This document shows, in pieces, positions 19,168 to 55,834 of a DNA stretch of 64,000 nucleotides (position 1 is its first letter; each line of letters opens with the position of its first letter). This DNA comes from Candidatus Heimdallarchaeum endolithica (GTDB lineage Archaea; Asgardarchaeota; Heimdallarchaeia; Heimdallarchaeales; Heimdallarchaeaceae): positions 832,001-896,000 of the forward strand of contig CP084167.1 in the NCBI GenBank assembly GCA_021513715.1. Direction: 5' to 3'. The notes under the pieces were generated by a model. The model did no database searches and had not been told where the DNA came from. It was given only the letters and a program-made list of their open reading frames with translations. The translations under genes were made by a program, and so were the position numbers.

Positions 19168-20886
19168 TTATTCGAAATTATCAGTTTTTACTTCCTCTTC
19201 TTGTTCTTCTTCTATTTCTTTAGAATCTTTTGTCTTTTCTTTTTCTGATGACTTTGAAGTTTCAACTTTTTCTTTTTCTTCTTTTAATTCTGCTTCTTCT
19301 GAAAGTTCTGATATAATCTTTTCTTTGATTATTGTTTTTGGCTCTTTAAGTTCTCTTTTCAACTCGTATTTTATTTCTTCTTTAATCTCTTCCTTAATCT
19401 CTTCCTTAATCTCTTCCTTAAGTAAAGATAATTCGTCTTTAGAAAAGTCTTTCATTATTTCTTTCTTTAGCTCTTTCTTGGGGGCTTCTTTAATTTCTTT
19501 CTTTAGCTCTTCCTTAATCTCTTCCTTAATCTCTGCTTTTATTTCTTCTTTAATCTCTTCTTTCTCATCTACTTTATCCATAATTAACTCCTCTTGAATC
19601 TCTTCTTTTTCCTCTTTTTCCTCTTCTTCCTCTTTTTCCTCTTCTTCCTCTTCTTCCTCTTCTTTTTCTTTCTTTAGTTCACTTTTCTTCTTTCCTTCTT
19701 TTACTTGTTTTTTTTCTTCTTTAGTCTCTTTTTCTTCTTCTTTTTTTTCCAAATCTTTTTTCTCTTTTGTTTCCTCTATACCAAATAGTTCTCGCTTTAC
19801 TTCCTTTTTAATCTCTTCTTTTACTGTTTCTCCTATATCTATTTTCTTGGATGTAGTTTCTTCTTTAGGAACGACTTCACTAGAAACAACTTTTTCTTCT
19901 TTTTTCTTTATATCTTCTGTAATAATTAAAAGAGGAACAATAACATCAGGATCACTCAACAAATCGATAAAAAGACCATATAAATTAGCTAATTTAGATG
20001 GAAGATAAATGATTAGCAATCCTAAATCTTTACCAAAACTAATCATTTGATTTTTCAATTCTTCATGATCTGAAAGGGAAAGAATTTCGAAATCTACAAA
20101 TCGTTGTGAATCTTCAAAAACTACTTGATTTGCACGTTCAAATTTATTTAATTCTTCTTTTTGTTTTGCTATAAGTTCTACAAATTCTTCATCATTTAAA
20201 TCCTGGTACAAATATCTATTTAACAAAAACATACAATGAATGTTTGCATTTTTTATGCTAAATTGAATAGATTTCTCTATTAAATACGATAATCTGCTTA
20301 AACTCCCAGTCACAATACCGATATGTTTCCACAAATATTCAGTATTTAGCTCCTGACTTTCAACTATCAATACAGGAACATCGTTTTCTTCTAAAAGATA
20401 ATTAAAAACATCACCCATTACTTCTATTTTTGCTTCTTCTTTCTCTTCTTCTTGTTTCACCTTGATACTTTTTTTCATGCCAATAAAGGAAGAAGGAACA
20501 ACAATTAAATCATAAGTTGAAGCGTATATAATTGCTGAGATGATGTTTTTTAGACCATCAAGATCTTCAACTACATGACCTTTTATATTAAAGAGTTTGC
20601 TTGATAGATGCTCATATGCGAAAGATAGAGCTTCATCGTATTGTTCTTTATTTGTATCTTCTTTGGAATAAAAACAGATAACGTCTACTGTTGCTTGGAA
20701 AAACAATCTGAGTTCTTCTGCAAGTAAAACAACAGTACGAGATTTTTTGGAACCATCAATAAGAACTAATACACTTTTTATTGGTTTAGCAGAAGGATCA
20801 ACTGAAGGAAGAAGGTTTGCAAACTTCTTTTTCTGCTCTTCAATAGTCTCCTTTTGCACTTCTATTTTATCTTGATGATTGGACAT
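19168..20886 (-). CDS. Universal-stress-protein (USP)-like domain protein with a long Glu/Lys-rich tail
   Basis: IKSVLVLIDGSKKS...YDLIVV...MGDVFNYLL...VPVLIV, followed by a probable second degenerate USP domain. ATG 20886 is preceded by GAGAGGA; the ORF track extends to 20994. Confidence 0.7.
   Translation of the reverse strand: MSNHQDKIEVQKETIEEQKKKFANLLPSVDPSAKPIKSVLVLIDGSKKSRTVVLLAEELRLFFQATVDVICFYSKEDTNKEQYDEALSFAYEHLSSKLFNIKGHVVEDLDGLKNIISAIIYASTYDLIVVPSSFIGMKKSIKVKQEEEKEEAKIEVMGDVFNYLLEENDVPVLIVESQELNTEYLWKHIGIVTGSLSRLSYLIEKSIQFSIKNANIHCMFLLNRYLYQDLNDEEFVELIAKQKEELNKFERANQVVFEDSQRFVDFEILSLSDHEELKNQMISFGKDLGLLIIYLPSKLANLYGLFIDLLSDPDVIVPLLIITEDIKKKEEKVVSSEVVPKEETTSKKIDIGETVKEEIKKEVKRELFGIEETKEKKDLEKKEEEKETKEEKKQVKEGKKKSELKKEKEEEEEEEEEKEEEEEKEEKEEIQEELIMDKVDEKEEIKEEIKAEIKEEIKEELKKEIKEAPKKELKKEIMKDFSKDELSLLKEEIKEEIKEEIKEEIKYELKRELKEPKTIIKEKIISELSEEAELKEEKEKVETSKSSEKEKTKDSKEIEEEQEEEVKTDNFE
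19372..19760 (-). repeat. Low-complexity / 12-bp (KEEI) microrepeats and poly-Glu tract
   Basis: Tandem ttaatctcttcc units at about 19382-19420 and 19510-19560; ttcctc repeats at about 19600-19670. Confidence 0.8.
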
Positions 20887-21061
20887 ACGAATTCCTCTCT
20901 CTATGCTTTTTATTTTTTCTTTTTGATTTTTAAACATCTCGAAATCGGTTAGTATATTGGCGTCAATACATTTTTTCATAAAATAAGAAAACAAGAGGTT
21001 TAACTGAAAAAAATGGGAACATATAAATAATAAATTTTTTCTTCTTACTAAAAGAAATAAA

Positions 21062-32345: not shown

Positions 32346-33347
32346 AGCATGTCCAAAAATTCTTTTTCACCAACTAAACGGTCCGAAGGAGTAAAAGGTA
32401 GTTGTAACAGAGAAGAGAACTGTACAAGGTAGAGAGGATGGTGGAGGGTAAACGATCAAGGATTGGGGGAAGAGAGAGTTTAAGGAGACCAAAGACGTGT
32501 TCAATACTACTACGATACTCGGGATGATGATTACGACGATACAGACCAGGGTAGAGACGATGAGCTTGAACTATTGGTCCGAGGGGAGGAGGAGAGGGAT
32601 AACGAGCATTACTTTTTGGGGGAATAACAGGGAAAAAGGAATGTTGGCTAAGAAGTCCAACGATATTTTCTGTCCAGTAGGCACAGTCTCCATAAAATCG
32701 CAAGAAAGGTCTCAAGAGTGCAGAAGGAAGTTTCTGCCAGAGTAAACCGAAGACTTTACTATCGTGAGTGTTACTAGCAGAATGAGCGAGAGAGACTATA
32801 GCTCGAGAGGGTAAACCAACTATAAGGTGTATCTTCCAGAAAAGTTTAGAGGTTTTCTTTAGTGTCCCTCTTGACCATTTGAGAAAACGCCAAACAGAAG
32901 CTTGACGGATTTTAAACCCTGAACTATCCACTGCCATAGCTTTCAAGCCTTTTTTCCTCACTATTTCCCTACCTAAATCTATTATCCACTGCTCTAAGAT
33001 TTTACTTTCTGTCGCTCTCCACACTGCATGAAAAGTAGATTTAGAAGGAATCTTCTTCATCCACCCCTCTTCTATCAAAAAATCGCATAAAGACAACTTT
33101 TCCTCTAACTTCCTCCAAGCTATCCCTTCTATTCTAGCAATGATTGCTAAAGCCAGTATCACCCATCTTTCTGCTATTCTCTTTCTCCCTCTCTTGCTTT
33201 CTCTCGGTTCCTCTTTCACCAGTTTCTTAAGGAAAGGTTCATTAATGATTATGAATTCTCTTGCTTTGTGGGGGTCTATGATCTGAAAGAAATTCATACT
33301 TCCGACATAAACCCCCACATTAATAAAAATTAATTTTTGGACATGCT
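32346..33347 (-). mobile_element. IS5-like (DDE_Tnp_1) insertion sequence, copy 1, 1002 bp
   Basis: Terminal inverted repeats AGCATGTCCAAAAATT / AATTTTTGGACATGCT; near-identical to 49673..50674. Flanks tttaataa / ttgaatat are not a perfect duplication. Confidence 0.92.
32374..33318 (-). CDS. DDE transposase (IS5-like)
   Basis: Motifs AVDSSG (D1), WKIHL, HDS, GDCAY (D2) and Y.RSSIEHVFGLLK (E). Confidence 0.92.
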   Translation of the reverse strand: MGVYVGSMNFFQIIDPHKAREFIIINEPFLKKLVKEEPRESKRGRKRIAERWVILALAIIARIEGIAWRKLEEKLSLCDFLIEEGWMKKIPSKSTFHAVWRATESKILEQWIIDLGREIVRKKGLKAMAVDSSGFKIRQASVWRFLKWSRGTLKKTSKLFWKIHLIVGLPSRAIVSLAHSASNTHDSKVFGLLWQKLPSALLRPFLRFYGDCAYWTENIVGLLSQHSFFPVIPPKSNARYPSPPPLGPIVQAHRLYPGLYRRNHHPEYRSSIEHVFGLLKLSLPPILDRLPSTILSTLYSSLLCYNYLLLLRTV

Positions 33348-34364: not shown

Positions 34365-35447
34365 TTGGAAATTGCAGAAATAGAAATAAAGAAAATTACT
34401 CCTAGTCCATTCCAACCTCGAGAAACTTTTGATAAAGAGGCTTTAGAAGAACTTGCAGAATCAATAAATGAATTTGACTTGTTAAATCCCATTTTAGTTA
34501 GGAAAACAGGAGAAGATTCTTATCAAATAATAGCAGGAGAACGTAGATGGAGAGCGGCTCAATTTGCGGGTTTAAAAAAGATCTCTGCGATTATAAAAGA
34601 TATAGACGAGGATAGACAAAAAATCGAATCACTCATTGAAAACGTTCACCGTCGAGATTTATTAATGATTGAAAAAGGGAGAGGAGTTTTAGAGATTTTT
34701 AGAGCTTATGGTTTTCACTTATCACCAAAAAATCTTGCTAACTTAATTAATAGTATAGAGCGAAAGAAATCTAAAAACATTGCCTTGATTCCCACTGAAG
34801 AACAGATAGAAAACATTATCAAGAAGATACATGTGAAACCTAATACTATTAGATTGTGGTTAGAAGCTGCTTCTGTCAATCCTGAAATCATAGAAGAAGA
34901 ATTAAAGAAGCCTGACGATGAGAGGATTCCAGAAAGAATTTTATCAAGATTAAGCACTATTCAAGATGATGAACTTCAAAAGAAAGCTTATTCTAAAATA
35001 ATTGACCTGAATTTGAATAAAGATGAAGCTTCTAAATTCGTTTCTACTATCAAAAAACTTCCAAAAGAAGAACAAGAAGCTGTTTTAACTAAGGGAGTCC
35101 CAGTTGAAATAATAGGAAACAAAGAGACAGGATTCTCAATTGAAGTTCCAAAAGAAAAAATTGAGGAAGTAAAGAAAACAATTGAAGTAAAGAAGAGTGC
35201 AGAAGTTTTACTTTCTCCTATAAAAGAGGAAAGACAAAGACATAGAAAGAATGTTGTTGCCCACCAGAAACTTCTTGAGCTTTTAGACGACTTATTCTGC
35301 CCCTTTACTGGTCAAAAAGCTTCCACTCACCTAAGATGGATTTCAGACCCAAAAAAAACCTTAGAAGAAGCTTTAGAACAAGCTAAAAAGAATCTTGAAG
35401 ATGCAGAAAAGAGAGAAAAAGCTGACCCTAGATTCATCGAAGACTAA
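34365..35447 (+). CDS. parB: ParB/RepB/Spo0J-family protein
   Basis: Motifs PFQPRETF, LAESI...LLNPILVR, IIAGERRWRAA and IENVHR.DL; TTG start preceded by GGAGATGA. Confidence 0.9.
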   Translation: MEIAEIEIKKITPSPFQPRETFDKEALEELAESINEFDLLNPILVRKTGEDSYQIIAGERRWRAAQFAGLKKISAIIKDIDEDRQKIESLIENVHRRDLLMIEKGRGVLEIFRAYGFHLSPKNLANLINSIERKKSKNIALIPTEEQIENIIKKIHVKPNTIRLWLEAASVNPEIIEEELKKPDDERIPERILSRLSTIQDDELQKKAYSKIIDLNLNKDEASKFVSTIKKLPKEEQEAVLTKGVPVEIIGNKETGFSIEVPKEKIEEVKKTIEVKKSAEVLLSPIKEERQRHRKNVVAHQKLLELLDDLFCPFTGQKASTHLRWISDPKKTLEEALEQAKKNLEDAEKREKADPRFIED

Positions 35448-35460
35448 TCTTTCTCTTTTT

Positions 35461-36558
35461 TTAAGGAATGATTTCAGTCGTATTATTGTATTTAGGATAA
35501 TTCAAATCCTCTTTTCTTATGATTCCATTTTCTATTAATTTTTCCACATCTGGTTTTATTTTTTTCAATTCAAAGATAAGATGCTTTACTGTTCCACAGA
35601 CTTTAGCAAAACCTTCCTCTCCCCATAATTTTGTTTTGTTTGCAAAAAGACACCTTCCTCCACATAAATCATAAACTTCACAAGTTAAACATGGATCTTC
35701 AATTAATACAGAGTTGAAAACATCAGTTGGTTTATTATCTTTTATATTCCCTACAACTGAAAATTCATATTCTGGAGGAAGGGGACAAACAGTTATCACT
35801 CCATCGGTTCTTATGGCAAAACTTGTTAATCCAGCTTGACAAGGTAGAGTAGTTTTTTTATTGTTTAAAATGTTCCAAAAAACACCTAAAAAAGGAACTA
35901 TTCCTAGTATTTTTCCTTTTTGCATCTCTTCTAACCAATAGTTAACCAACTTTGTTATTCCATTATTGTAATTTATTATCCAATCATCTAAATTTTGCCA
36001 CCGAGTATGATCTATATCATCCCATAATACATCAAGTTGCCAATGGACATGATCAAACCCTAGTTCTCTGTCATTTAATAAGAAATACACATCACGAAAA
36101 ATATCTGCTGATTCAGAAACAGCCATTCTAGCGATTAAATCGCCTTTAAACCCTTTTTCTTTGATAATCCCTATATTTTCCTTTATCTTATCAAAAACAC
36201 CCTTTCCTCTATTTGCATCGGTAATATCTTTATCGCCATCTATTGATATTAAAATGGTTGAAAATCTCACTAAATATTCTGTTGGTAATTTATCTAAAAA
36301 CCAGCCATTGGTTTGTATAGTGTAATGTTCTGCGTCTATTTCATTCATTACTTCTTTTATCAGTTTTAAGTTAAGTAATGGTTCCCCACCATAAAAAGCA
36401 ATTGTAGGATTAGGATCTTGAGAAAGAAATTCCTTTAACTGCTTGAGATCCCAATTAGCATTAACAGGTAAATCAGGGTGAGGTTCATTTTGACAATACT
36501 GACAGTAGAAATTACACCTATTTGTAGTGACTAAAAACCAGTTCATTCTTACTTTCAC
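35461..36558 (-). CDS. Radical SAM/SPASM protein (AF0577 / TIGR04084-like)
   Basis: CNFYCQYC, FYGGEP and SIDG; SPASM cysteines CLTC..YDLCGGRC; C-terminus NTTEIIP. Confidence 0.85.
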   Translation of the reverse strand: MKVRMNWFLVTTNRCNFYCQYCQNEPHPDLPVNANWDLKQLKEFLSQDPNPTIAFYGGEPLLNLKLIKEVMNEIDAEHYTIQTNGWFLDKLPTEYLVRFSTILISIDGDKDITDANRGKGVFDKIKENIGIIKEKGFKGDLIARMAVSESADIFRDVYFLLNDRELGFDHVHWQLDVLWDDIDHTRWQNLDDWIINYNNGITKLVNYWLEEMQKGKILGIVPFLGVFWNILNNKKTTLPCQAGLTSFAIRTDGVITVCPLPPEYEFSVVGNIKDNKPTDVFNSVLIEDPCLTCEVYDLCGGRCLFANKTKLWGEEGFAKVCGTVKHLIFELKKIKPDVEKLIENGIIRKEDLNYPKYNNTTEIIP

Positions 36559-36713: not shown

Positions 36714-37694
36714 GTGATGCGTTTGAAAATAATCATTACAACAGAAACTGGTGAACTACTTTTTTCATACGATTCTTTTACTGAAAATAGAAAGTATGAT
36801 AATGTGCTAATTACAGGATTAATTTCTGCTATTGTAGTTTTATCTAATGAAGTAGTTAGTTCATTTCCCCGCGAAATCGAATTTGAAGGGAAAATCCTCT
36901 ATTTTTACAGAGAAAATGAATTTATTGCAGCTTTACTTGCAGATATAGAATCTCCGTTTAATGGAAGCATTCTACCTATTATCCTAGGTGTATTTAAGGA
37001 AGTTCAAGAAAAATATAGTTTTCCAACTCACAAAGCAATGAGATATGACAGAGAGATTGCACATGCAGTAAAAGATTGCTTAGCCATGTATTTAGCAAAC
37101 ATGCAAAAGAAAATGGTTAAATTACTGGATGACACAGATGTAGCTGACTATAATTCAATTATTAAGGTAAAAGCTGTAGCTAAAGACTTTTTGAAAGATT
37201 CTTCCCAATTTTTACCTATTGATCTAATTTGCAGGATGATTCCTGATGGAATGGAAAAAATTCTTTATGGTTTAGTTGTAGGTATTCCTATTGTAATTTC
37301 AGGTAATAAAGATATTGTGGAGCAACTAATAAACAGCTTAAGAATGCTCTGCCCTACAAGAATATTGAAAATAAAATATTGGTCTGATAAATATGTTTCA
37401 GGATACGACATTATTGGTACAAATGATGCTAGATTGTTAAAACCCTCTCTTTATCAACTATACATAAATGTTAATGATGGAATAGTTTTAGGTGGAAAAT
37501 CTACACAATACTTTAAAGATATAGAATGCCAAATTTGTAATCTTAATACAATAGAAGCTTTTAATTTTATAAGAAGTGAACTAAATTGGATCTTCAAAGC
37601 ATTTGAAGAGCTAAAAATAGATGTTTTTTCCAAAAAATCACTACCGTTAGAAAAACAATTGATTTTGTTTGAACTTTTAAAGAGATTACATTAA
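36714..37694 (+). CDS. Longin-like N-terminus plus folliculin/DENN-like C-terminal domain protein (eukaryotic signature protein)
   Basis: N-terminus IIITTETGELLFS...LITGLISAI has the longin pattern. ILYGLVVGIPIVISGNKDIVEQLINSLRMLCP...IKYWSDKY..GYDIIG resembles the cDENN core of folliculin. Confidence 0.65.
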   Translation: MMRLKIIITTETGELLFSYDSFTENRKYDNVLITGLISAIVVLSNEVVSSFPREIEFEGKILYFYRENEFIAALLADIESPFNGSILPIILGVFKEVQEKYSFPTHKAMRYDREIAHAVKDCLAMYLANMQKKMVKLLDDTDVADYNSIIKVKAVAKDFLKDSSQFLPIDLICRMIPDGMEKILYGLVVGIPIVISGNKDIVEQLINSLRMLCPTRILKIKYWSDKYVSGYDIIGTNDARLLKPSLYQLYINVNDGIVLGGKSTQYFKDIECQICNLNTIEAFNFIRSELNWIFKAFEELKIDVFSKKSLPLEKQLILFELLKRLH

Positions 37695-37754
37695 AAATAG
37701 GATTGACGAAAAAACTATTAATAACCATTTTTAATTTAGACTAAACGTTAAATT

Positions 37755-38063
37755 GTGATGATTGTGGAGAGAAAGTCCAAAGAGACAATAAAAAAATGGA
37801 TCTCAAGTTTAGATATAAGGAAGTTTAGCTTTAGAGGTAAACTGATAATAATCATCTCATTTCTACTAATTAGTTTTGCAATCATAATTAACTACATCAA
37901 TAATTTTCAAGGAAAGATCGTAAAATATTCTATATGGATTCTATTTGGATGGTTTTTTTTGATAATAATTTTCTATATTTCGATTAAACTGCTTTCTTTC
38001 ACAGTTTTAAGGAATAAACAACAAAAATTAAAAGAAGAAATAGAAAGTGATAATCTTGATTAG
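37755..38063 (+). CDS. Small 2-TM membrane protein
   Basis: Two hydrophobic helices; overlaps the next ORF. Confidence 0.6.
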   Translation: MMIVERKSKETIKKWISSLDIRKFSFRGKLIIIISFLLISFAIIINYINNFQGKIVKYSIWILFGWFFLIIIFYISIKLLSFTVLRNKQQKLKEEIESDNLD

Positions 38064-38376
38064 AGTAAAAATCAAACCAAAAATTGCTCATGTTATTTTT
38101 GAAATTTTAGCCTTACTTATTACAATTGGAGGGTCACTTTATATTGCTTCTATTGCTAACAAAGTTGTCTTATGGATTTTTGAGACACTAATCGTCATTG
38201 TTCTACTTTATTTTGGAGGAAAAAGTATTTACAGTAAAATGAAACCATTCTACGTTTCAGCTCCTTTAAGAGAAGATATGATAAAAAATCAAGAAGATAA
38301 AAAAGGAATTATATCAGAGCCTACAAAAAGAGGGTTAAAGAATGAAGACAAAGAAATTCAAAAACATGACGAATAA
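38047..38376 (+). CDS. Small 2-TM membrane protein
   Basis: Two hydrophobic helices and a charged tail. Confidence 0.6.
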   Translation: MIILIRVKIKPKIAHVIFEILALLITIGGSLYIASIANKVVLWIFETLIVIVLLYFGGKSIYSKMKPFYVSAPLREDMIKNQEDKKGIISEPTKRGLKNEDKEIQKHDE

Positions 38377-38596
38377 AGAATTTTCAAGAGTTTATGCTAC
38401 AATTTTTCTTATCATAATCTGCTTTCCTGTTGTTTTTATATCACAAAAATTCATTGTTCCTCTTTTAGGAAATTACGAAACCATATATTGGATAGGTTTG
38501 TTTTTAGTATTATCTTTTACTTTTCCTCTATTAATTCTGATATTTTCTAAAGCTTTGCCTAATAAAAAAGGAGAATTAAGTAATTCCCGACAATAA
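38342..38596 (+). CDS. Small 2-TM membrane protein (start probably ATG 38366)
   Basis: Two hydrophobic helices. Confidence 0.6.
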   Translation: MKTKKFKNMTNKEFSRVYATIFLIIICFPVVFISQKFIVPLLGNYETIYWIGLFLVLSFTFPLLILIFSKALPNKKGELSNSRQ

Positions 38597-38659
38597 CTCC
38601 AGAACAATGATTGGTGTAAGACACACGTTTATATACCATAATAAAGATACATTCAAAAG

Positions 38660-38878
38660 ATGACTGAAAGAATTATTCCTTTAATTTCTCTTTGTAAACA
38701 AGAAAAGATATCTATTTCACTACTTCTTTCTTCTTTAAGACTAATAGAAAAAGGTTTGATTAGAAAACAGTCTGAACTTAATGAATATCTGAAAAGAAGA
38801 GCAAAATATGAACCTCAAATCTTAAAGGATATTGAAAAAGTAGAAAGGTTAATTGTTGAAAACAACATAATAAAATAA
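38660..38878 (+). CDS. Small hypothetical helical protein
   Basis: ATG preceded by TTTATATA about 30 nt upstream; fills the intergenic space. Confidence 0.6.
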   Translation: MTERIIPLISLCKQEKISISLLLSSLRLIEKGLIRKQSELNEYLKRRAKYEPQILKDIEKVERLIVENNIIK

Positions 38879-38884
38879 TTTACA

Positions 38885-40261
38885 CTATTTTATTATTTTC
38901 TTTCTTTTGGCATATTGTATTAACATTTTTATGGCATAAGCTGCTTCTCTAGGGTTCAAAAATATAGGACTACTCTCTTTTTTAGCTATTTTCTTTGGTT
39001 CATTTAGCAAATTACCACTCATGAAGATAGGGATTATAGGTTTCTTTCTTCCTGTTTCATTCCACGCTTTAATAACTCCTTCATAATGTTCAGATGTTGT
39101 CATTCCCAAAAATGTGGGTATTACTGCTATAGGAACAACAATGTCAATATCTGGATCTTCAAGCATAGCTTTTGTTACCTCATAATACTCTTTTCCTGAT
39201 GCTCCTGCTATCATATCTAGAGGGTTTACTTTTTTAACTAATGGAATCAAAAAAGGATTAATTTTCTCTTTAAATTCTTCAGTAAATGGAGCAAGTTTTA
39301 AGCCAAAATCATCAGCAAAGTCACTGAACATCACTGCACTTCCTCCACTATTTGTAAGTACTCCTATTTTTTCTCCTTTAGGCAAGGGAAGAAATGAAAA
39401 AGCTTTAATTGCAGCGATATAATCTGAGATGCTTTCACACATTATTGCGCCTGCTTGTTTAACTGCTGTTTTTAGAGAACTATAGTCTGTTGCCATAGAA
39501 CCAGTATGACTTGAAGCAGCACCCATTCCTGTAGCAGTTCTTCCTCCTTTAAGGACTACAACAGGTTTGTCCTTTGCTACCTCATGTAATTCTTCATAAA
39601 ATACTCTCCCATCTACAACATTTTCAAGATATATAGTAACAACTTTTGTATTTTCATCTTCTTTATAGAACCTTAATACATCTGTTAGATTTATATCAGC
39701 CATATTTCCTAAATTAGCAAATTTAGAAAAACCTAGTCCTTGCCAAACCATTTCGTACAAAACTATTGCTCCCACTGAACCAGACTGTGTAATCATACTT
39801 ACATTTCCTTTTGGAGGAGTCTGAATGAAAGAAGCATTCATTCCGATATCAACATTCTGTATTCCAACACAGTTAGGGCCAATTAACCTTATTCCTTTCT
39901 CTTTCAATTTTTGTGACAACTGCTCTTGCACTTTTCTTCCTTCTTCATTAATTTCAGCAAAGCCAGCAGTTACTATTATTATCCGCTTAACCTTCTTTTC
40001 TATACATTCATCAACAACAGAAGGAACAATCTTTGCAGGAACTAGTAAAATTGCTAGATCTATCTCATCAGGTATTTCTAGCACTGATTTATAAGCTTTT
40101 AAACCACCTATAGTTTCAGCTTTAGGATGGACAGGATATAATTTTGCAGCTAGATCTTTATTGTCCATTAAGTTAGCTGTTACAGCATGCCCAAACTTTT
40201 TTTCATTATCTGTCGCACCAATAATTGCAATAGAATCTGGATAGAAGAACTTCCTAGTCAT
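38885..40261 (-). CDS. acdA: ADP-forming acetate/acyl-CoA ligase, alpha subunit
   Basis: Motifs SIAIIGAT, IGPNCVG, TQSG, LGNMAD, SSHTGSMA (phospho-His), TNSGG and NPLDM. Confidence 0.9.
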   Translation of the reverse strand: MTRKFFYPDSIAIIGATDNEKKFGHAVTANLMDNKDLAAKLYPVHPKAETIGGLKAYKSVLEIPDEIDLAILLVPAKIVPSVVDECIEKKVKRIIIVTAGFAEINEEGRKVQEQLSQKLKEKGIRLIGPNCVGIQNVDIGMNASFIQTPPKGNVSMITQSGSVGAIVLYEMVWQGLGFSKFANLGNMADINLTDVLRFYKEDENTKVVTIYLENVVDGRVFYEELHEVAKDKPVVVLKGGRTATGMGAASSHTGSMATDYSSLKTAVKQAGAIMCESISDYIAAIKAFSFLPLPKGEKIGVLTNSGGSAVMFSDFADDFGLKLAPFTEEFKEKINPFLIPLVKKVNPLDMIAGASGKEYYEVTKAMLEDPDIDIVVPIAVIPTFLGMTTSEHYEGVIKAWNETGRKKPIIPIFMSGNLLNEPKKIAKKESSPIFLNPREAAYAIKMLIQYAKRKKIIK

Positions 40262-40355
40262 TGCTCTTTTTAGAAATTGTGTCCTTTTAATTTTTTCTTA
40301 ATCAACAAAAAAGATAATCAGTAAGTATTATTTTTAATCAGTACTTATCTATTTT

Positions 40356-41318
40356 CTATTTATTTCTATATCCATACTCAATTACGCATTTTTCAGGGTC
40401 TAAGTTTAAAACACTTAAAGTAAATTTTTCAATTACATCATAATTTGAATCATCTTTATCTGTAAGATCAGTAATAATATCCAATACTCTTCTTGCTTCT
40501 TCATGACTTTCGTCAGCCTTTATAACCAATCCTAAAATATGAGATCTTGAAGAACGAAGAATAAACTTATGTTTTTTTGACATTATAAATTGAATAGTAT
40601 TGCTTTCATTGAAAGTTTTTTTGGCAAAACTTTGTATTGCTGAAAGAAAACCTGAATAAAGAGATATCCTATCTGAAAGTTTCTTCTTCGAGATACTTAA
40701 AATAGGCAATCCATCCCTGTCTGCAAGTAGAAAAGACTCAGGAGTTACTTTTCTTTTTTGGACAAGTTTAGACAACTGATTTTGTAACCAATATAGGACA
40801 GAGTCAAAATTTTCTCCTGTTTGCATACTAGTTTTAAAAAATTGAAAAGATGCATTAGGAATTGTAGCGAGGTTGTATATTTCTACTATGTTAATTATTT
40901 CCTCCAGATTCATACTATTTTCTAAATCTGCCTTATTACACAAAAATAGAATTAAAAATTCATCTCCTTTATCTTTTAACTTAATTGATTTCCAAAATTC
41001 TTTTTTTGCTTCAAGCAGTGATTGTCTATCTGATGAATCAATAATAAAAATTATCCCATAAGCCAACTTAATATAATTTTCCCAGATAGTTTTCCTAAAA
41101 ACTTCTTGCCCTCCTAAATCAAAAATATTTACTTTTAGATCAAATAGTTTGTATTGTTCTAATTGAACTCCCATAGTGGGTTTAGGACTTGTAAATTTCC
41201 CAGTGAGAACTCTGTTAACGAAGGTTGTTTTTCCAGCATTAGGTAAACCTAAAATTACTAGAGGAATGCCTTTTTTCTCAAAAGAAAGTAGTTTTTCAGA
41301 TATTTTCTTCTTATTCAA
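40356..41318 (-). CDS. Arf-like small GTPase fused to a C-terminal longin/roadblock-like domain
   Basis: G1 GLPNAGKT, G2 PT, G3 DLGGQ, G4 NKAD, G5 TSM; C-terminus FLLADRDGLPILS...LYSGFLSAIQSFAK. Confidence 0.9.
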   Translation of the reverse strand: MNKKKISEKLLSFEKKGIPLVILGLPNAGKTTFVNRVLTGKFTSPKPTMGVQLEQYKLFDLKVNIFDLGGQEVFRKTIWENYIKLAYGIIFIIDSSDRQSLLEAKKEFWKSIKLKDKGDEFLILFLCNKADLENSMNLEEIINIVEIYNLATIPNASFQFFKTSMQTGENFDSVLYWLQNQLSKLVQKRKVTPESFLLADRDGLPILSISKKKLSDRISLYSGFLSAIQSFAKKTFNESNTIQFIMSKKHKFILRSSRSHILGLVIKADESHEEARRVLDIITDLTDKDDSNYDVIEKFTLSVLNLDPEKCVIEYGYRNK

Positions 41319-41500: not shown

Positions 41501-42445
41501 TTGACAAAAAGGATTTTAGTAACGGGTAGTTATGGACAAATAGGTCAAGTTCTTGTCCCTGCTCTAATGGACAGATATGGAAAAGAAAATATTATTGCTA
41601 CAGGAAGAAAAAAGATTCCTTCAGTTTTTAAAGAAAAAGACGTTCATTATCATCGATTAGACGTCAGAGACTTAACACAAATGCAAACTCTTCTAGTCGA
41701 ACATGATATCGATATTTTAATTCATAATGCATCTGTTCTTTCTGCCACTGGAGAAAAAAATCCTCAACTTGCACATTCAATTAATTTTGAAGGCTTTTAT
41801 AACGCTTTAGAAGCCACAAGAATGTTAAATTTAGAACAACTATTTGCTCCAAGTTCTATTGCAGCATTTGGTCCATCTACACCTAGAGAAAACACACCCA
41901 ATGATGTTATCACTCGACCAACAACAATATATGGAATAAGTAAAGTCTATATTGAGCTAATGGGAGAGTATTATCATCAAAAATATGGATTAGATTTTAG
42001 ATCTCTTCGTTACCCTGGAGTAATTTCTCCTGAAGAACCTGGAGGTGGAACAACAGATTGGGCAATTTGGATTTTCTGGGAGGCTTTACGCAATAAGAAA
42101 TACACTTGCTTCTTGAAAGAAGATACATCTCTTCCAATGATGTATATGCCAGACTGTATTAAATCAACAATTGATCTTATAGAAGCAGATAATTCGAAAC
42201 TGGAACACCGTTCATTTAATGTTACAGCATTTAGTTTAGCGCCTAAAGATTTAGTTGGGCCTATAAAAGAAGCTATTCCAGAGTTTGAGATTGCTTATGA
42301 GCCTGATTTCAGACAACAAATTGCAGAATCTTGGCCAGCTTCAATTGATGATAGTGTAGCTAGAAAAGAGTGGGGATGGAAACCAGACTACGATATTCCT
42401 GCAATGACAAAAGATATGTTAGAAAAAATTTCTAAAATGATTTAA
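41501..42445 (+). CDS. tdh: L-threonine 3-dehydrogenase (extended SDR / epimerase family)
   Basis: Motifs TGSYGQIG, LSATGE.NP, PSSIAAFG, YGISK, PGGGTTD and LPMMYMPD. Confidence 0.85.
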   Translation: MTKRILVTGSYGQIGQVLVPALMDRYGKENIIATGRKKIPSVFKEKDVHYHRLDVRDLTQMQTLLVEHDIDILIHNASVLSATGEKNPQLAHSINFEGFYNALEATRMLNLEQLFAPSSIAAFGPSTPRENTPNDVITRPTTIYGISKVYIELMGEYYHQKYGLDFRSLRYPGVISPEEPGGGTTDWAIWIFWEALRNKKYTCFLKEDTSLPMMYMPDCIKSTIDLIEADNSKLEHRSFNVTAFSLAPKDLVGPIKEAIPEFEIAYEPDFRQQIAESWPASIDDSVARKEWGWKPDYDIPAMTKDMLEKISKMI

Positions 42446-45599: not shown

Positions 45600-47042
45600 A
45601 TGACTGTTAATGTTCTCACAGATAAATGTGAAATTTCCAAATGTAATACTGAGTGTATAGAAGTTTGTCCTCAGAACAAAAAAGACATTACAGCTATTAA
45701 GATTGAACAGAATAAAGCTAGGATAATTCACAAAAATTGTATTGAATGTCTGTTATGTATTCAATATTGTCCTCTTAAAGCAATAGAAATTCAGAAAACT
45801 AAAGAAAAAGAAGTAAAAAATAAAAGAAGAAAAAAAAACAAAGAGAAGTCAAAATATTCTCTTTTCGAAATTGATGAAAAGATATTTCAACCTATGAGTG
45901 AAAAAAGAACTATTTTTGCTAGAGTTATGTGGGATGATACTTTTGAAGGTTATCAGAAGGGTATATTTGAAGGTGCAAAAAACAAAATACCTCTAAATTT
46001 AGATGGATATTCTGAGATCGAACATGCTGCTATTTCTGGTGCATGGGCAGTTGATGGTATAATTGGAATGTTTGAAAGAGAGCAATTAGCAAAAATGAAC
46101 GAAGAACCAAAGAACGTTGGTGACAGTAGAGGAGTTGAAAAAAAGAAAGATTTACTTAATCCTGAACAAAGTGCTAAAACAAAACGAACTTTAGAAAATA
46201 ACCCTTCAGAGTTAACTTCTTGGGTAAAAAAAGTAGCCATGTTTTATGGAGCAGATCTAGTAGGAATCACACCAATCGATCTCAAATGGATTTACACTGA
46301 AGATAGACAAGGAAATCCTTTGAACCTTCCTGAAGGATTAACAAATGTAATTGTTTTTGCTGTAGAAATGGATATTGATGCAATTAACACAGCTCCGAAA
46401 TATCCTAGCGGAATTGCCACTGGTCTAGGCTATTCTAAAATGGCTTTTATTCGCACTTTACTTACATTTTTTATTAGAAGAATGGGTTATAAAGCTATTC
46501 CTGCTGGGAATAATATTGCTCTTTCAGTCCCACTTGCTGTAGAAGCTGGACTTGGAGGATATGGAAGGCATGGATTACTTATTACAAAAAAATTTGGTCC
46601 AAGAGTAAGAATAGCAAAAGTATTAACTGATATGCCTTTAATTCCAGACAAACCAGATTATAAATTTGTAAAAGCAGTTGAACGTTTTTGTAAAACATGT
46701 AAAACTTGCGCTAAAAAATGTCCAAGTAACTCAATTCCTTTTGATAAAGAACCAAGTTTTGACATTCAAAGTAAAGTAAGTAACAATCCAGGAATTAAAA
46801 AGTGGTATGTAAATGTTGAAACTTGCTATATGTTTTGGACAGAAAATGGATGTGATTGCAGCAGATGTATATCTGATTGTGAATATAATCATGTATATAC
46901 TCTTCCCCATAAAATTGTTAATTGGATTGTAATGAATCTTCCCTTTCTCAATCCTATTTGGCCATTAATGGGAAAACTACTTGGCTATGGAGGAAACAAA
47001 TCAGCAAAGAAGTTCTGGAAGAAAATAAAAGTTTCACCCTAA
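45600..47042 (+). CDS. rdhA: Reductive dehalogenase-like (RdhA/QueG superfamily) protein with extra N-terminal Fe-S domain
   Basis: Motifs VKKVAMFYGADLVGI, AVEAGLG.YGRHGLLIT..FGPRVR and VLTDMPL.PDKP; Fe-S motifs FCKTCKTCAKKCP and C...W....CSRCISDC. Confidence 0.8.
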   Translation: MTVNVLTDKCEISKCNTECIEVCPQNKKDITAIKIEQNKARIIHKNCIECLLCIQYCPLKAIEIQKTKEKEVKNKRRKKNKEKSKYSLFEIDEKIFQPMSEKRTIFARVMWDDTFEGYQKGIFEGAKNKIPLNLDGYSEIEHAAISGAWAVDGIIGMFEREQLAKMNEEPKNVGDSRGVEKKKDLLNPEQSAKTKRTLENNPSELTSWVKKVAMFYGADLVGITPIDLKWIYTEDRQGNPLNLPEGLTNVIVFAVEMDIDAINTAPKYPSGIATGLGYSKMAFIRTLLTFFIRRMGYKAIPAGNNIALSVPLAVEAGLGGYGRHGLLITKKFGPRVRIAKVLTDMPLIPDKPDYKFVKAVERFCKTCKTCAKKCPSNSIPFDKEPSFDIQSKVSNNPGIKKWYVNVETCYMFWTENGCDCSRCISDCEYNHVYTLPHKIVNWIVMNLPFLNPIWPLMGKLLGYGGNKSAKKFWKKIKVSP

Positions 47043-48331: not shown

Positions 48332-49645
48332 TTGACAGCATTAGATATTTTAAAAAAGCACATGCTTGTAGATGGTTATCCTATTGTGTTAGATTTACAA
48401 AAAAGCGAAGGTTGCCACATTTATGACAAAATTTCAGGAAAAAGATATCTTGATTTCTTTTCTTTCTTTGCATCTGCACCTTTAGGAATGAATCATCCTA
48501 AACTTACTACTAAGGAATTTAAAGATAAATTAGCTTATGTAGCAGTAAATAAACCGAGTAATAGCGATTTTTATACAGATGAACTTGCAGAGTTTGTAGA
48601 CACTTTGGAGAAAATAGGTATGCCAGACTTTTTACCAAATTTGTTTTTAATTAGTGGAGGAGCTCTCGCAGTTGAAAATGCACTTAAAGCAGCATTTGAT
48701 TGGAAGGTTAGGAAAAATTTCTCTAAAGGTATTAAAGAAGAAAAAGGACATCAAATTATTCATTTTAAAGAAGCTTTTCATGGAAGAACAGGATATACTC
48801 TATCATTGACTAATACTTTTGATCCTAGGAAATATATTTATTTTCCAAGATTCAATTGGCCTAGAGTTTTAAATCCTAAAATCACTTTTCCATTAGAAAA
48901 GAACATTGATGAAGTTAAACATGCAGAAGAACAGAGCCTTAGTGAAATAAGAGAAGCGATTTCTTCAAACAAGGATGATATTGCAGGAATTATAATTGAA
49001 CCTATACAAGGTGAAGGAGGAGATAATCATTTTAGACCAGAATTTTTCCATGAACTACGAAAAATTGCAGATGAAGAAGAAATTATTTTGATTTATGATG
49101 AAGTCCAAACAGGTGTAGGATTAACAGGAAAATTCTGGGCTTTTGAGCATTTTGGAGAAAAAGGAAAACCTGACATTATTAGTTTTGGTAAGAAAATGCA
49201 AGTCTGCGGAATAATGGCTTCTGACAGGATAAAAGAAGTAGAAAATAATGTTTTCGAAGAGTCAAGCCGCATCAATAGCACATGGGGTGGAAACTTAATA
49301 GATATTGTTAGAGCAACAAAGTACTTAGAAGTGATAAAAGAAGAAAATCTTGTTGAAAATGCTTCTAAACAAGGAGAATACATATTGAAATTACTAACAG
49401 AGATTCAAGAAAAATATCCTGATAAAATAAATAATGTTAGAGGAAAAGGTCTTATGATAGCTTTTGATTTACCAAATAGTGAAATTAGAGACAAACTTAA
49501 GAACATTGCATTTGATAAAGAATTAATAATCCTTCCATCTGGATCTAAATCTATTCGTTTCAGACCCCCACTTATCATTAACCAAGAGATTATTGATGAA
49601 GTATTTTCTATTCTAGAAGAATCAATAAAAGAAGTACAAATTTAA
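48332..49645 (+). CDS. lat: L-lysine 6-transaminase (class III aminotransferase)
   Basis: Motifs HMLVDG, YLDFFSFFASAPLGMNHP, NKPSNSDFY, GALAVENALK.AFDWK, FGKK and RINSTWGG. Confidence 0.92.
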   Translation: MTALDILKKHMLVDGYPIVLDLQKSEGCHIYDKISGKRYLDFFSFFASAPLGMNHPKLTTKEFKDKLAYVAVNKPSNSDFYTDELAEFVDTLEKIGMPDFLPNLFLISGGALAVENALKAAFDWKVRKNFSKGIKEEKGHQIIHFKEAFHGRTGYTLSLTNTFDPRKYIYFPRFNWPRVLNPKITFPLEKNIDEVKHAEEQSLSEIREAISSNKDDIAGIIIEPIQGEGGDNHFRPEFFHELRKIADEEEIILIYDEVQTGVGLTGKFWAFEHFGEKGKPDIISFGKKMQVCGIMASDRIKEVENNVFEESSRINSTWGGNLIDIVRATKYLEVIKEENLVENASKQGEYILKLLTEIQEKYPDKINNVRGKGLMIAFDLPNSEIRDKLKNIAFDKELIILPSGSKSIRFRPPLIINQEIIDEVFSILEESIKEVQI

Positions 49646-49672: not shown

Positions 49673-50674
49673 AGCATGTCCAAAAATTCTTTTTCACCTA
49701 CTAAACGGTCCGAAGGAGTAAAAGGTAGTTGTAACAGAGAAGAGAACTGTACAAGGTAGAGAGGATGGTGGAGGGTAAACGATCAAGGATTGGGGGAAGA
49801 GAGAGTTTAAGGAGACCAAAGACGTGTTCAATACTACTACGATACTCGGGATGATGATTACGACGATACAGACCAGGGTAGAGACGATGAGCTTGAACTA
49901 TTGGTCCGAGGGGAGGAGGAGAGGGATAACGAGCATTACTTTTTGGGGGAATAACAGGAAAAAAGGAATGTTGGCTAAGAAGTCCCACGATATTTTCTGT
50001 CCAGTAGGCACAGTCTCCATAAAATCGCAAGAAAGGTCTCAAGAGTGCAGAAGGAAGTTTCTGCCAGAGTAAACCGAAGACTTTACTATCATGAGTGTTA
50101 CTAGCAGAATGAGCGAGAGAGACTATAGCTCGAGAGGGTAAACCAACTATAAGGTGTATCTTCCAGAAAAGTTTAGAGGTTTTCTTTAGTGTCCCTCTTG
50201 ACCATTTGAGAAAACGCCAAACAGAAGCTTGACGGATTTTAAACCCTGAACTATCCACTGCCATAGCTTTCAAGCCTTTTTTCCTCACTATTTCCCTACC
50301 TAAATCTATTATCCACTGCTCTAAGATTTTACTTTCTGTCGCTCTCCACACTGCATGAAAAGTAGATTTAGAAGGAATCTTCTTCATCCACCCCTCTTCT
50401 ATCAAAAAATCGCATAAAGACAACTTTTCCTCTAACTTCCTCCAAGCTATCCCTTCTATTCTAGCAATGATTGCTAAAGCCAGTATCACCCATCTTTCTG
50501 CTATTCTCTTTCTCCCTCTCTTGCTTTCTCTCGGTTCCTCTTTCACCAGTTTCTTAAGGAAAGGTTCATTAATGATTATGAATTCTCTTGCTTTGTGGGG
50601 GTCTATGATCTGAAAGAAATTCATACTTCCGACATAAACCCCCACATTAATAAAAATTAATTTTTGGACATGCT
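49673..50674 (-). mobile_element. IS5-like insertion sequence, copy 2, 1002 bp, with 8-bp target-site duplication TAGTCTAA
   Basis: Same TIRs as copy 1; TAGTCTAA at 49665-49672 and 50675-50682. Confidence 0.95.
49701..50645 (-). CDS. DDE transposase (IS5-like); protein identical to 32374..33318
   Basis: Identical translation in the ORF track. Confidence 0.92.
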   Translation of the reverse strand: MGVYVGSMNFFQIIDPHKAREFIIINEPFLKKLVKEEPRESKRGRKRIAERWVILALAIIARIEGIAWRKLEEKLSLCDFLIEEGWMKKIPSKSTFHAVWRATESKILEQWIIDLGREIVRKKGLKAMAVDSSGFKIRQASVWRFLKWSRGTLKKTSKLFWKIHLIVGLPSRAIVSLAHSASNTHDSKVFGLLWQKLPSALLRPFLRFYGDCAYWTENIVGLLSQHSFFPVIPPKSNARYPSPPPLGPIVQAHRLYPGLYRRNHHPEYRSSIEHVFGLLKLSLPPILDRLPSTILSTLYSSLLCYNYLLLLRTV

Positions 50675-54213: not shown

Positions 54214-54352
54214 TAGTCACACCTATTTGAAATTATATAGCTCTCTTTTTAACTTTTAACCTTAAAATTTAAACTAGATCCCTAAAAAAATCGTATAAAA
54301 AGTATAAAAAGAAAGAAAAATGAGGAAAAGAAAGGAACAAAATAGATATCAA

Positions 54353-55834
54353 CTAAGTTTTATCTGATTTAGTGTCTTCTTGAACTTTATCTGATTTAGT
54401 GTCTTCTTGAACTTTATCTGATTTAGTGTCTTCTTGAACTTTATCTGATTTAGTGTCTTCTTGAACTTTATCTGATTTAGTGTCTTCTTGAACTTTATCT
54501 GATTTAGTGTCTTCTTGAACTTTATCTGATTTAGTGTCTTCTTGAACTTTATCTGATTTAGTGTCTTCTTGAACTTTATCTGATTTAGTGTCTTCACCGT
54601 CTTCTTCTTTACTTTCTTTTTCTTTAAATACTAGTTGTAACATCAGCGGTGTCAGGAGAACTGTAACAAATACAAGCAATATAACTACTGTAAATATGTT
54701 TTCATCAAAGATCTCATTTTCTAGTCCTATTCCAGCTATGACCAATAGTATTTCAGCTCGAGGAGTTATCCCAGTTGCAATACGTAGTGCTGATTTTGAA
54801 GAAAATCCTGTTAATTTTGAACCTAGAAAAGCTCCTATTCCCTTCGATAAGATTGCAAAAGGAATTACTAACCATATTCCCCAAGGGAATACATAATTAG
54901 CGCTTCCTAGTTGAGTGAGATCTATTTGGAAATTGGAACCTACTGAGAAGAAGAATAATGGAATAAACACTCCTTCTCCAAATTTTGTAATTGTTCCTTT
55001 AACTTCACCCACTATTATCCTATCTTGCTGAATTGCTATTCCCAGAAGAAAGGCCATTACTGCCCCTGAAAAGTGAAGTTGTTCAGCAAAATAAGCTAAT
55101 AAAGAAATCAGACCAAATACAATCCCTAGTGTAAAGTTGTTTGTTCGAGAGCGGGTGAAAATGTTAAAACGATATTCCATCCAGTTTAAGAACTTGGGTA
55201 AAAGAACTACCACTACCAAAATGAATATTGCTAAAAAACCTAAATCTTTTAGAATAATTAATGCAATATTTCCTTCTTCTGTATTAAATAAAGCACTTGC
55301 CAAAATTAATACAAGTATTAATGCTAGAAAATCATCTAAAACTGCTATAGAAAGTAATGTCTGACCCTCTTCAGAACCAAGTTTCTTCAAATCAGATAGA
55401 GATCTAACTGTAACACCTATTGAAGTTGCAGTGAATAAAGTACCAAAAAATATTGCAAACCGTACATCTCTTTCTAGAAAGATAAATGCAGTAAGAAAAC
55501 CACCTATTAAAGCCAAAGAAACTTCAGTAATTGATATAGTAATACTTCTTTTTCCAGTTTTTAATAATGACTTTACATTTATTTCCATCCCAACAATAAA
55601 CAGCAACAAAATTATACCGATTTGACTAAAAGAACGTAGTGATGCCCTATCCATAAATAGATCATTGATATTGGATAAACCTAAAATTGAAAATAAAGGA
55701 CCTCCAAACATAATTCCAGCGAATAACTCGCCAAGTATAGCTGAGAGTTTTAGTCGCTCGAAAATTTCTCCGAAAATCCTTGCAGCAAGAATTGCTACAC
55801 CAATATATAAAAGCAAAGATATGGCTTCATTCAT
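54353..55834 (-). CDS. Cation:proton antiporter (CPA2/NapA-like) with repetitive C-terminal tail
   Basis: Motifs LGELFAG, LLFIVGME, ATSIGVT, AVLDD, FIPLFF and PRAE. Confidence 0.92.
   Translation of the reverse strand: MNEAISLLLYIGVAILAARIFGEIFERLKLSAILGELFAGIMFGGPLFSILGLSNINDLFMDRASLRSFSQIGIILLLFIVGMEINVKSLLKTGKRSITISITEVSLALIGGFLTAFIFLERDVRFAIFFGTLFTATSIGVTVRSLSDLKKLGSEEGQTLLSIAVLDDFLALILVLILASALFNTEEGNIALIILKDLGFLAIFILVVVVLLPKFLNWMEYRFNIFTRSRTNNFTLGIVFGLISLLAYFAEQLHFSGAVMAFLLGIAIQQDRIIVGEVKGTITKFGEGVFIPLFFFSVGSNFQIDLTQLGSANYVFPWGIWLVIPFAILSKGIGAFLGSKLTGFSSKSALRIATGITPRAEILLVIAGIGLENEIFDENIFTVVILLVFVTVLLTPLMLQLVFKEKESKEEDGEDTKSDKVQEDTKSDKVQEDTKSDKVQEDTKSDKVQEDTKSDKVQEDTKSDKVQEDTKSDKVQEDTKSDKVQEDTKSDKT
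54359..54595. repeat. Perfect 27-bp tandem repeat, 8 full copies plus 21 bp (encodes EDTKSDKVQ)
   Basis: Unit TTTATCTGATTTAGTGTCTTCTTGAAC repeated with no spacers or mismatches. Confidence 0.97.

Follow-up and report, generated by a model that had tools for sequence, protein, structure and literature searches.

Does a locus of Candidatus Heimdallarchaeum endolithica hold an archaeal forerunner of the nutrient switch formed by Rag and folliculin? The question is raised by two genes in a stretch of 64,000 nucleotides (contig CP084167.1 of assembly GCA_021513715.1, positions 832,001 to 896,000 of the forward strand), the whole of which is called the window here. The first gene, at 36714-37694 on the plus strand, encodes a longin-DENN protein of 326 amino acids (aa); its open reading frame (ORF) starts with GTG and has an ATG in frame at 36717. 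The second, at 40356-41318 on the minus strand, encodes a GTPase of 320 aa with a C-terminal longin. A preliminary description had suggested that the two proteins could be an ancestral Rag/Arf GTPase and a folliculin-like GTPase-activating protein (GAP). An ORF check agrees with that description on where the genes lie and on their convergent arrangement, with a gap of 2,661 base pairs (bp). We consider it likely that both are unremarkable representatives of signalling families that have expanded in Asgard archaea, placed in two convergent units, and that they are probably not a dedicated pair.

The GTPase and its C-terminal domain

The protein encoded at 40356-41318 has the complete G1-G5 set of an Arf-type GTPase that the preliminary description had reported. 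The motifs are G1 GLPNAGKT (24-31), G2 T48, G3 DLGGQ (67-71), G4 NKAD (128-131), and G5 TSM (163-165). The core residues are invariant across 55 homologues, in which GLPNAGKT, T48, DLGGQ/H, W79, NKxD, and TSM are conserved, and residue 71 of G3 gives DLGGQ in this genus versus the Sar1-like DLGGH in 51/55 homologues. The GTPase of Ca. Heimdallarchaeum aukensis is 89% identical. Pfam matches Arf to residues 9-181 (E 5.7e-36, 124 bits) and Fuz_longin_1 to residues 196-282 (E 2.6e-4). The best sequence matches in the PDB are HodArfR1 (E 3.5e-38), GerdArfR1 (3e-33), and Arf1 (1e-30). The AlphaFold2 model, with a predicted local distance difference test score (pLDDT) of 84 and a predicted template modelling score of 0.86, also has HodArfR1 as its best match by fold (Z 20.7, root-mean-square deviation (rmsd) 2.3, 170 residues aligned), in a tie with Arf1 and Arl1 at about 20, and the match is weaker to the Rags, LokiRagO (Z 17.1) and RagD (Z 15.3).

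The Pfam family Gtr1_RagA gives no match to this GTPase, which is absent from its 22 matches in the genome; a weak match is seen in 2/55 members of the GTPase family. The Rag-like GTPases of the genome are two other genes, G000:C1:1418605-1419765 (L088:2605-3765) and G000:C1:1528097-1529341, with 79 and 74 bits to Gtr1_RagA. The first of these was taken as a positive control, and its PDB matches were LokiRagO (E 3e-35) and RagA (2e-11), ahead of Arf1 (8e-8), with LokiRagM also among the best. That LokiRagO and RagA rank ahead of every Arf for the control shows that the test distinguishes the Rag and Arf groups. A literature search found no paper on LokiRagM or LokiRagO. The control protein is also extended at its N-terminus, by about 85 residues. 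In a tree without eukaryotic rows, the GTPase groups with two paralogues of its own genome (99/94), outside the Rab/Ras-like clade (96/82). At its deep nodes, the tree does not separate ArfR-like from Rag-like rows, so that formal membership of ArfR is likely rather than proven. The closest two paralogues of the GTPase are at G000:C1:1368027 and 2045244. Judged by its sequence, the G domain is of the Arf/ArfR type, and the GTPase is not a Rag.

What is the C-terminal domain? It had been called longin/roadblock-like, and of these two assignments longin stands and roadblock does not. The order of elements in the AlphaFold2 model, strand-strand-helix-three strands-two helices, is the longin topology, with no leading helix and two trailing helices, whereas a roadblock has a helix first and one helix last. 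Across the GTPase family, Pfam finds Fuz_longin_1 in 18/55 members and Robl_LC7 in 6/55. A PDB sequence search with the C-terminal domain gave nothing meaningful, and the fold searches with the whole model say nothing about this domain because all of their matches fell on the G domain. The second helix of the longin carries an invariant E274-x-R276-R277 patch. At the N-terminus, a helix is predicted at 3-10, in a region that varies across the family. The protein is most likely an Arf-type GDP/GTP switch, as its motifs suggest, and its longin, by comparison with other longin systems, would most likely be a platform for dimerisation with another longin or roadblock domain. The genome has 38 small GTPases in all, about 8 of them Arf-type with C-terminal extensions, and no second GTPase gene adjoins 40356-41318.

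The longin-DENN protein

The N-terminal longin and C-terminal DENN domains described for 36714-37694 were recovered from its AlphaFold2 model (pLDDT 79). Foldseek places FLCN at the top (6ulg_L, E 2.2e-6), followed by C9orf72 and DENND10, and SMCR8 is also among the top structural matches. With VIA-align, the DENN part (159-326) matches DENND10 with Z 14.1 (rmsd 2.9, 161 aligned), tied with the C-terminal domain of FLCN at Z 13.1-13.2 (rmsd 3.4, 163 aligned), and residues 1-130 match longins with Z 10-11.8. Pfam Folliculin_C gives weak matches, under its cut-off, in 21/30 family members, and Pfam Folliculin, the longin part (PF11704), has no match anywhere in the genome. A PDB sequence search with the profile of this DENN family found nothing meaningful, and with a broader DENN profile SMCR8 came up at no better than E 0.018. 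The protein is homologous to many Asgard DENN proteins, and the genome carries 3 longin-DENN genes.

In FLCN and NPRL2, the arginine finger sits in an extended beta4-beta5 loop beside the GP motif. The longin-DENN protein has neither element. Before longin strand 2 there is G13-E14 in 28/30 members and G-Q in 2, and strands 60-67 and 70-77 (beta4-beta5) are joined by a two-residue turn, with an Arg at position 66 in 1/30. The sole conserved Arg of this longin is R53, before strand 3 (29/30), which lies within an invariant F51-P52-x-E54 patch; R53 could conceivably act as a non-canonical arginine finger. Alignment with other Asgard longin-DENN proteins places the protein in a plain-longin class, apart from the FD..xGP class with its long Arg-bearing loop. 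Because this longin has neither a GP motif nor an arginine-finger loop, we do not read the protein as a GAP of the folliculin type, and it probably has no arginine-finger activity of that kind. Most likely, it is a noncatalytic GTPase-binding scaffold or an exchange factor of the DENND type, and its client could be any of the about 38 small GTPases.

GP-class longins are present elsewhere in the same genome. A second longin-DENN gene, G000:C1:2878882-2879985 (L071:10882-11985), is of a GP-like class (FDDTVGS, with a KSKRSP loop); at a distance of 6.8 kb lies a further Arf-type GTPase that is extended at its C-terminus.

Linkage of the two genes

The genes of the locus are as follows.

36714..37694, plus strand: longin (about 1-130) and DENN (cDENN/dDENN, about 160-326) protein, of the plain Asgard longin type
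37755..38063, plus strand: small two-helix membrane protein 1, kept directly 3' of the DENN gene, inverted in genus g4
38047..38376, plus strand: small two-helix membrane protein 2, kept in g1, g2, and g5; in this genus it overlaps its neighbours
38342..38596, plus strand: small two-helix membrane protein 3, kept in g1, g2, and g5
38660..38878, plus strand: 72-aa soluble helical protein, last gene of the DENN unit
38885..40261, minus strand: acetate-CoA ligase (ADP-forming) alpha-like subunit, acdA (TIGR02717)
40356..41318, minus strand: Arf-related (ArfR-like) small GTPase (9-188) with C-terminal longin (about 193-305)
35461..36558, minus strand: radical S-adenosylmethionine (SAM)/SPASM protein (TIGR04084), divergent from the DENN gene, inherited with the same block and taken as an internal control
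41501..42445, plus strand: L-threonine 3-dehydrogenase of the short-chain dehydrogenase/reductase type, tdh (E 1e-107), divergent from the GTPase and likewise inherited with the block

The gap between the two genes thus holds acdA plus four small conserved ORFs, which the preliminary description had passed over. We propose that the locus is made of two units. Unit 1 would be the longin-DENN gene with the three small membrane proteins and the small soluble protein, and unit 2 the GTPase-longin gene with acdA, probably co-transcribed. The ORFs of 37755-38878 stand behind the DENN gene in nearly all genomes of the family Heimdallarchaeaceae, where the soluble one measures 72-82 aa, and this gene order suggests that the membrane proteins may hold the longin-DENN protein at the membrane. 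An atlas search with the 72-aa ORF gave no match, and the Pfam matches of the three membrane ORFs are weak and all under cut-off. The idea that these three are one frameshifted gene was rejected, since they are separate and mostly non-overlapping ORFs in genera g2 and g5.

Why are the two units neighbours? The orthologues are convergent and 2.4-3.2 kb apart in 21/21 testable genomes from four genera of Heimdallarchaeaceae, that is, in those family genomes whose contigs are long enough (seven others end too early). Among 301 genomes of the phylum, a DENN orthologue (E below 1e-80) was found only in this family (f1), so nothing shows that the pair is ancient, and in two other families the nearest relatives of the GTPase and of the DENN protein that were examined showed no linkage within 8 kb. 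Synteny, which had been suggested as a check, holds inside the family and was not seen for those relatives. The first proximity of the pair needs no selection. When the gene order was shuffled, 1 of the 3 DENN genes fell within 2.7 kb of 1 of the 8 Arf genes with a C-terminal domain in 5% of trials, and within 2.7 kb of any of the 38 small GTPases in 22%. The same four genera also keep the radical SAM gene and acdA together in 13 loci, and these two have no evident shared role. GTPase and acdA are on the same strand, with acdA 23-138 bp downstream, in 20/20 loci from all five genera. In 22 loci of the other three genera, the 3' ends of the soluble ORF and acdA overlap tail-to-tail by 10-16 bp; in this genus, the stop of the soluble ORF lies 5-6 bp from that of acdA. 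The overlap of the last gene of unit 1 with acdA would make the junction hard to break and so lock the units together mechanically. Inheritance of the block by the family, together with this tail-to-tail overlap, would be why the units remain side by side in Heimdallarchaeaceae. For the closeness of the two genes, the best explanation is a gene order passed down within a single family.

Several observations weigh against this explanation, beginning with the linkage in every testable genome. In three other genera, background pairs of orthologues 2-4 kb apart are kept in just 49% (G023), 26% (G002), and 17% (G005) of cases, so the block is steadier than average, yet it is not exceptional. Insertions are frequent outside the pair and rare inside it. 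Genus g3 (G004) speaks for the explanation: GTPase-acdA is kept there in inverted form, the assembly contains the two regions that once flanked the DENN unit but not the unit, and a search of it found no DENN orthologue and no small soluble ORF; as this assembly is fragmented (91% complete, 710 contigs), loss of the unit there is not proven. The longins of the two proteins, which are of the same plain type, give a weak profile match to each other (E 0.0056, probability 6.5%). A complex prediction with the two full-length proteins and their alignments scored 0.07 against a mark of 0.32, which counts neither for nor against a pair.

The alternative that survives best is a cognate module particular to the family, in which a longin heterodimer would place on the Arf-type G domain either the DENN domain or the longin platform. 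It would act as an exchange factor or scaffold, like the longin dimers of Mon1-Ccz1 or TRAPP, with the three membrane proteins as anchor. This would fit the complete linkage above the 17-49% background and the plain type of both longins, which is the kind that could heterodimerise. The invariant patches, E274-x-R276-R277 in the GTPase and F51-P52-x-E54 in the DENN protein, show that both proteins carry conserved surfaces. However, the genes are on opposite strands in separate units, unrelated genes are retained equally, the 3' overlap accounts for the lock, and the GTPase persists in G004 without the DENN unit beside it. Furthermore, in the Asgard archaeon MK-D1 small GTPase genes as a rule share no operon with longin genes, which makes the arrangement of a genome a poor indicator of partners (Tran et al. 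2024, PMC10933270). We regard a cognate module as unlikely, and, if anything, less likely still its particular form in which the longin-DENN protein is the specific membrane-anchored exchange factor or scaffold of the neighbouring Arf-longin GTPase, acting via a longin-longin heterodimer. If true, DENN and Arf proteins would be matched as a pair in an archaeon, with three small membrane proteins as the subunits of their anchor.

A functional tie of the GTPase to acdA, whose co-transcription would let the switch follow acetate/ATP-producing catabolism, is quite improbable. The constant arrangement of the two genes in 20/20 loci, which include the genus without a DENN unit there, is what speaks for it, but 72% of close pairs (under 500 bp) are retained in the background, acdA is absent from the neighbourhood of the nearest relatives of the GTPase that were examined in two other families, and no mechanism is known.

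The precursor of the Rag-folliculin switch, with a Rag-like GTPase, an arginine-finger GAP of the folliculin type, and a response to amino acids, is largely refuted by the sequence comparisons: FLCN is the top whole-protein fold match, Folliculin_C matches weakly, and catabolic genes are neighbours, but the G domain is Arf-type with a longin behind it and the Rag-like genes are elsewhere, the GP motif is missing here, as is the arginine finger, while GP-class longins lie at other loci, DENND10 equals FLCN on the DENN part, and the linkage argument gives way before a DENN orthologue limited to one family, a linkage shared by unrelated metabolic genes, and the mechanical explanation offered by the overlap. 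The amino-acid catabolism genes named in the preliminary description are present, tdh clearly and acdA with a TIGR02717 score of 442 bits, under the cut-off of 567; this neighbourhood is all that ties the pair to amino-acid sensing.

Other features were seen beside the locus and elsewhere in the window. Many genomes of genus g5 have a 920-aa ORF without a Pfam match between the GTPase and tdh (L039:5116-7875, with equivalents in L034, L037, L038, L040, L046, L047, and L049). Two copies of an IS5-like transposase, at 32374-33318 and 49701-50645, are identical in protein and 98% identical in DNA over the 300 bp compared. A reductive dehalogenase-family protein with an N-terminal ferredoxin-like domain (TIGR02486, above cut-off) is encoded at 45600-47042, an L-lysine 6-transaminase (TIGR03251, above cut-off) at 48332-49645, and a lone ParB-domain protein at 34365-35447. 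A tandem array of a 27-bp unit occupies 54305-54655, at the 3' end of ORF 54353-55834, and degenerate 12-bp tandem repeats at 19322-19821, within ORF 19168-20994, code for a charged low-complexity stretch. An Rfam search of the window gave no match.

Another candidate module and comparison with known systems

A much better candidate for a Rag-heterodimer/FLCN-like module than the longin-DENN/GTPase pair is an operon outside the window, 0.5 Mb from the pair.

G000:C1:1386217-1389021 (L075:6217-9021), one strand: Arf-longin GTPase, degenerate GTPase, and 255-aa longin-like gene, with gaps of 3 and 12 bp

The degenerate GTPase has its C-terminal domain and no recognisable G2/G3 motifs, and the 255-aa longin-like protein carries the GP motif (FKDYGP) together with an Arg-bearing loop, DERIAEAGYR. 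Homologues of the 255-aa gene occur in 80/83 genomes of the class, and three f7 family genomes (L117, L118, L124) have the three genes in the same order. An MglA-like gene lies divergently upstream. This pattern of a conserved module is not matched by the pair studied here.

Family f7 also has, at L076:6031-9822 and L077:4155-7897, a plain longin-DENN gene 1.9 kb upstream of a GerdArfR1-like GTPase on the same strand, with two unannotated 250-aa genes in between. Since this GTPase closely resembles the solved GerdArfR1, the f7 pair is directly testable.

Our literature search turned up no Asgard DENN protein that had been matched by experiment to a client GTPase; if a pair were proven, it would place DENN-type control of Arf GTPases before the eukaryotes. 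The locus in the window is a weak candidate for such control: the pair is restricted to one family, convergent, and devoid of the catalytic signature. It is of practical use as a negative comparator, and it points to the co-oriented operon of GTPase, degenerate GTPase, and GP-motif longin, which is conserved across families.

Folliculin-like and GTPase-longin proteins are already known from Asgard archaea (Liu 2020/21; Tran 2024; Traffic 2025). The closest relatives of the G domain, by sequence and by fold, are the Asgard ArfR GTPases HodArfR1 (PDB 8OUK/8OUL) and GerdArfR1 (8OUM/8OUN) (bioRxiv 10.1101/2024.02.28.582541). Like these, the GTPase has an Arf-type switch I (PTMG), DxGG, and Trp79, and it has no Gly2. 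Unlike these, it has a C-terminal longin, its N-terminal helix is short and poorly conserved, and its family mostly has DLGGH, with DLGGQ in this genus. Asgard Arfs with extra domains such as a longin have been described with that domain at the N-terminus by Zhu et al. (PMC11914678), whose study included a structural search for homologues of Arf exchange factors and GAPs. Fusions of a GTPase with a longin were reported by Liu et al. (bioRxiv 10.1101/2020.10.19.343400), and Tran et al. (PMC10933270) found Asgard GTPase-longin/roadblock fusions to be close to both Rag and Arf; in both papers, GTPase-longin and GTPase-roadblock fusions are called 'Rag-like'. The GTPase studied here has the same two-domain build, but it falls on the Arf side by sequence, and genes like RagA or LokiRag are found at other loci.

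Liu et al. also described Heimdall proteins with the domain organisation of FLCN. Like these Asgard DENN proteins, the longin-DENN protein combines longin and DENN in one compact chain. Their operon of roadblock, Rab-like GTPase, and DENN is not seen here, where three small membrane proteins come next instead. In FLCN, SMCR8, and NPRL2 alike, longin strand 2 is preceded by a GP motif with an arginine finger beside it, and both elements also occur in some Asgard longins (Traffic 2025, PMC12290439). The overall fold of the longin-DENN protein is like that of FLCN-FNIP, SMCR8-C9orf72, and NPRL2-NPRL3. It differs from the catalytic GAP subunits in having neither GP motif nor arginine finger, and in this it is like FNIP, NPRL3, and the DENND proteins. 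DENND1 is an exchange factor of Rab35. The DENN part is matched best by DENND10, which, like the longin-DENN protein, has no GP motif; the identity is just 6-12%.

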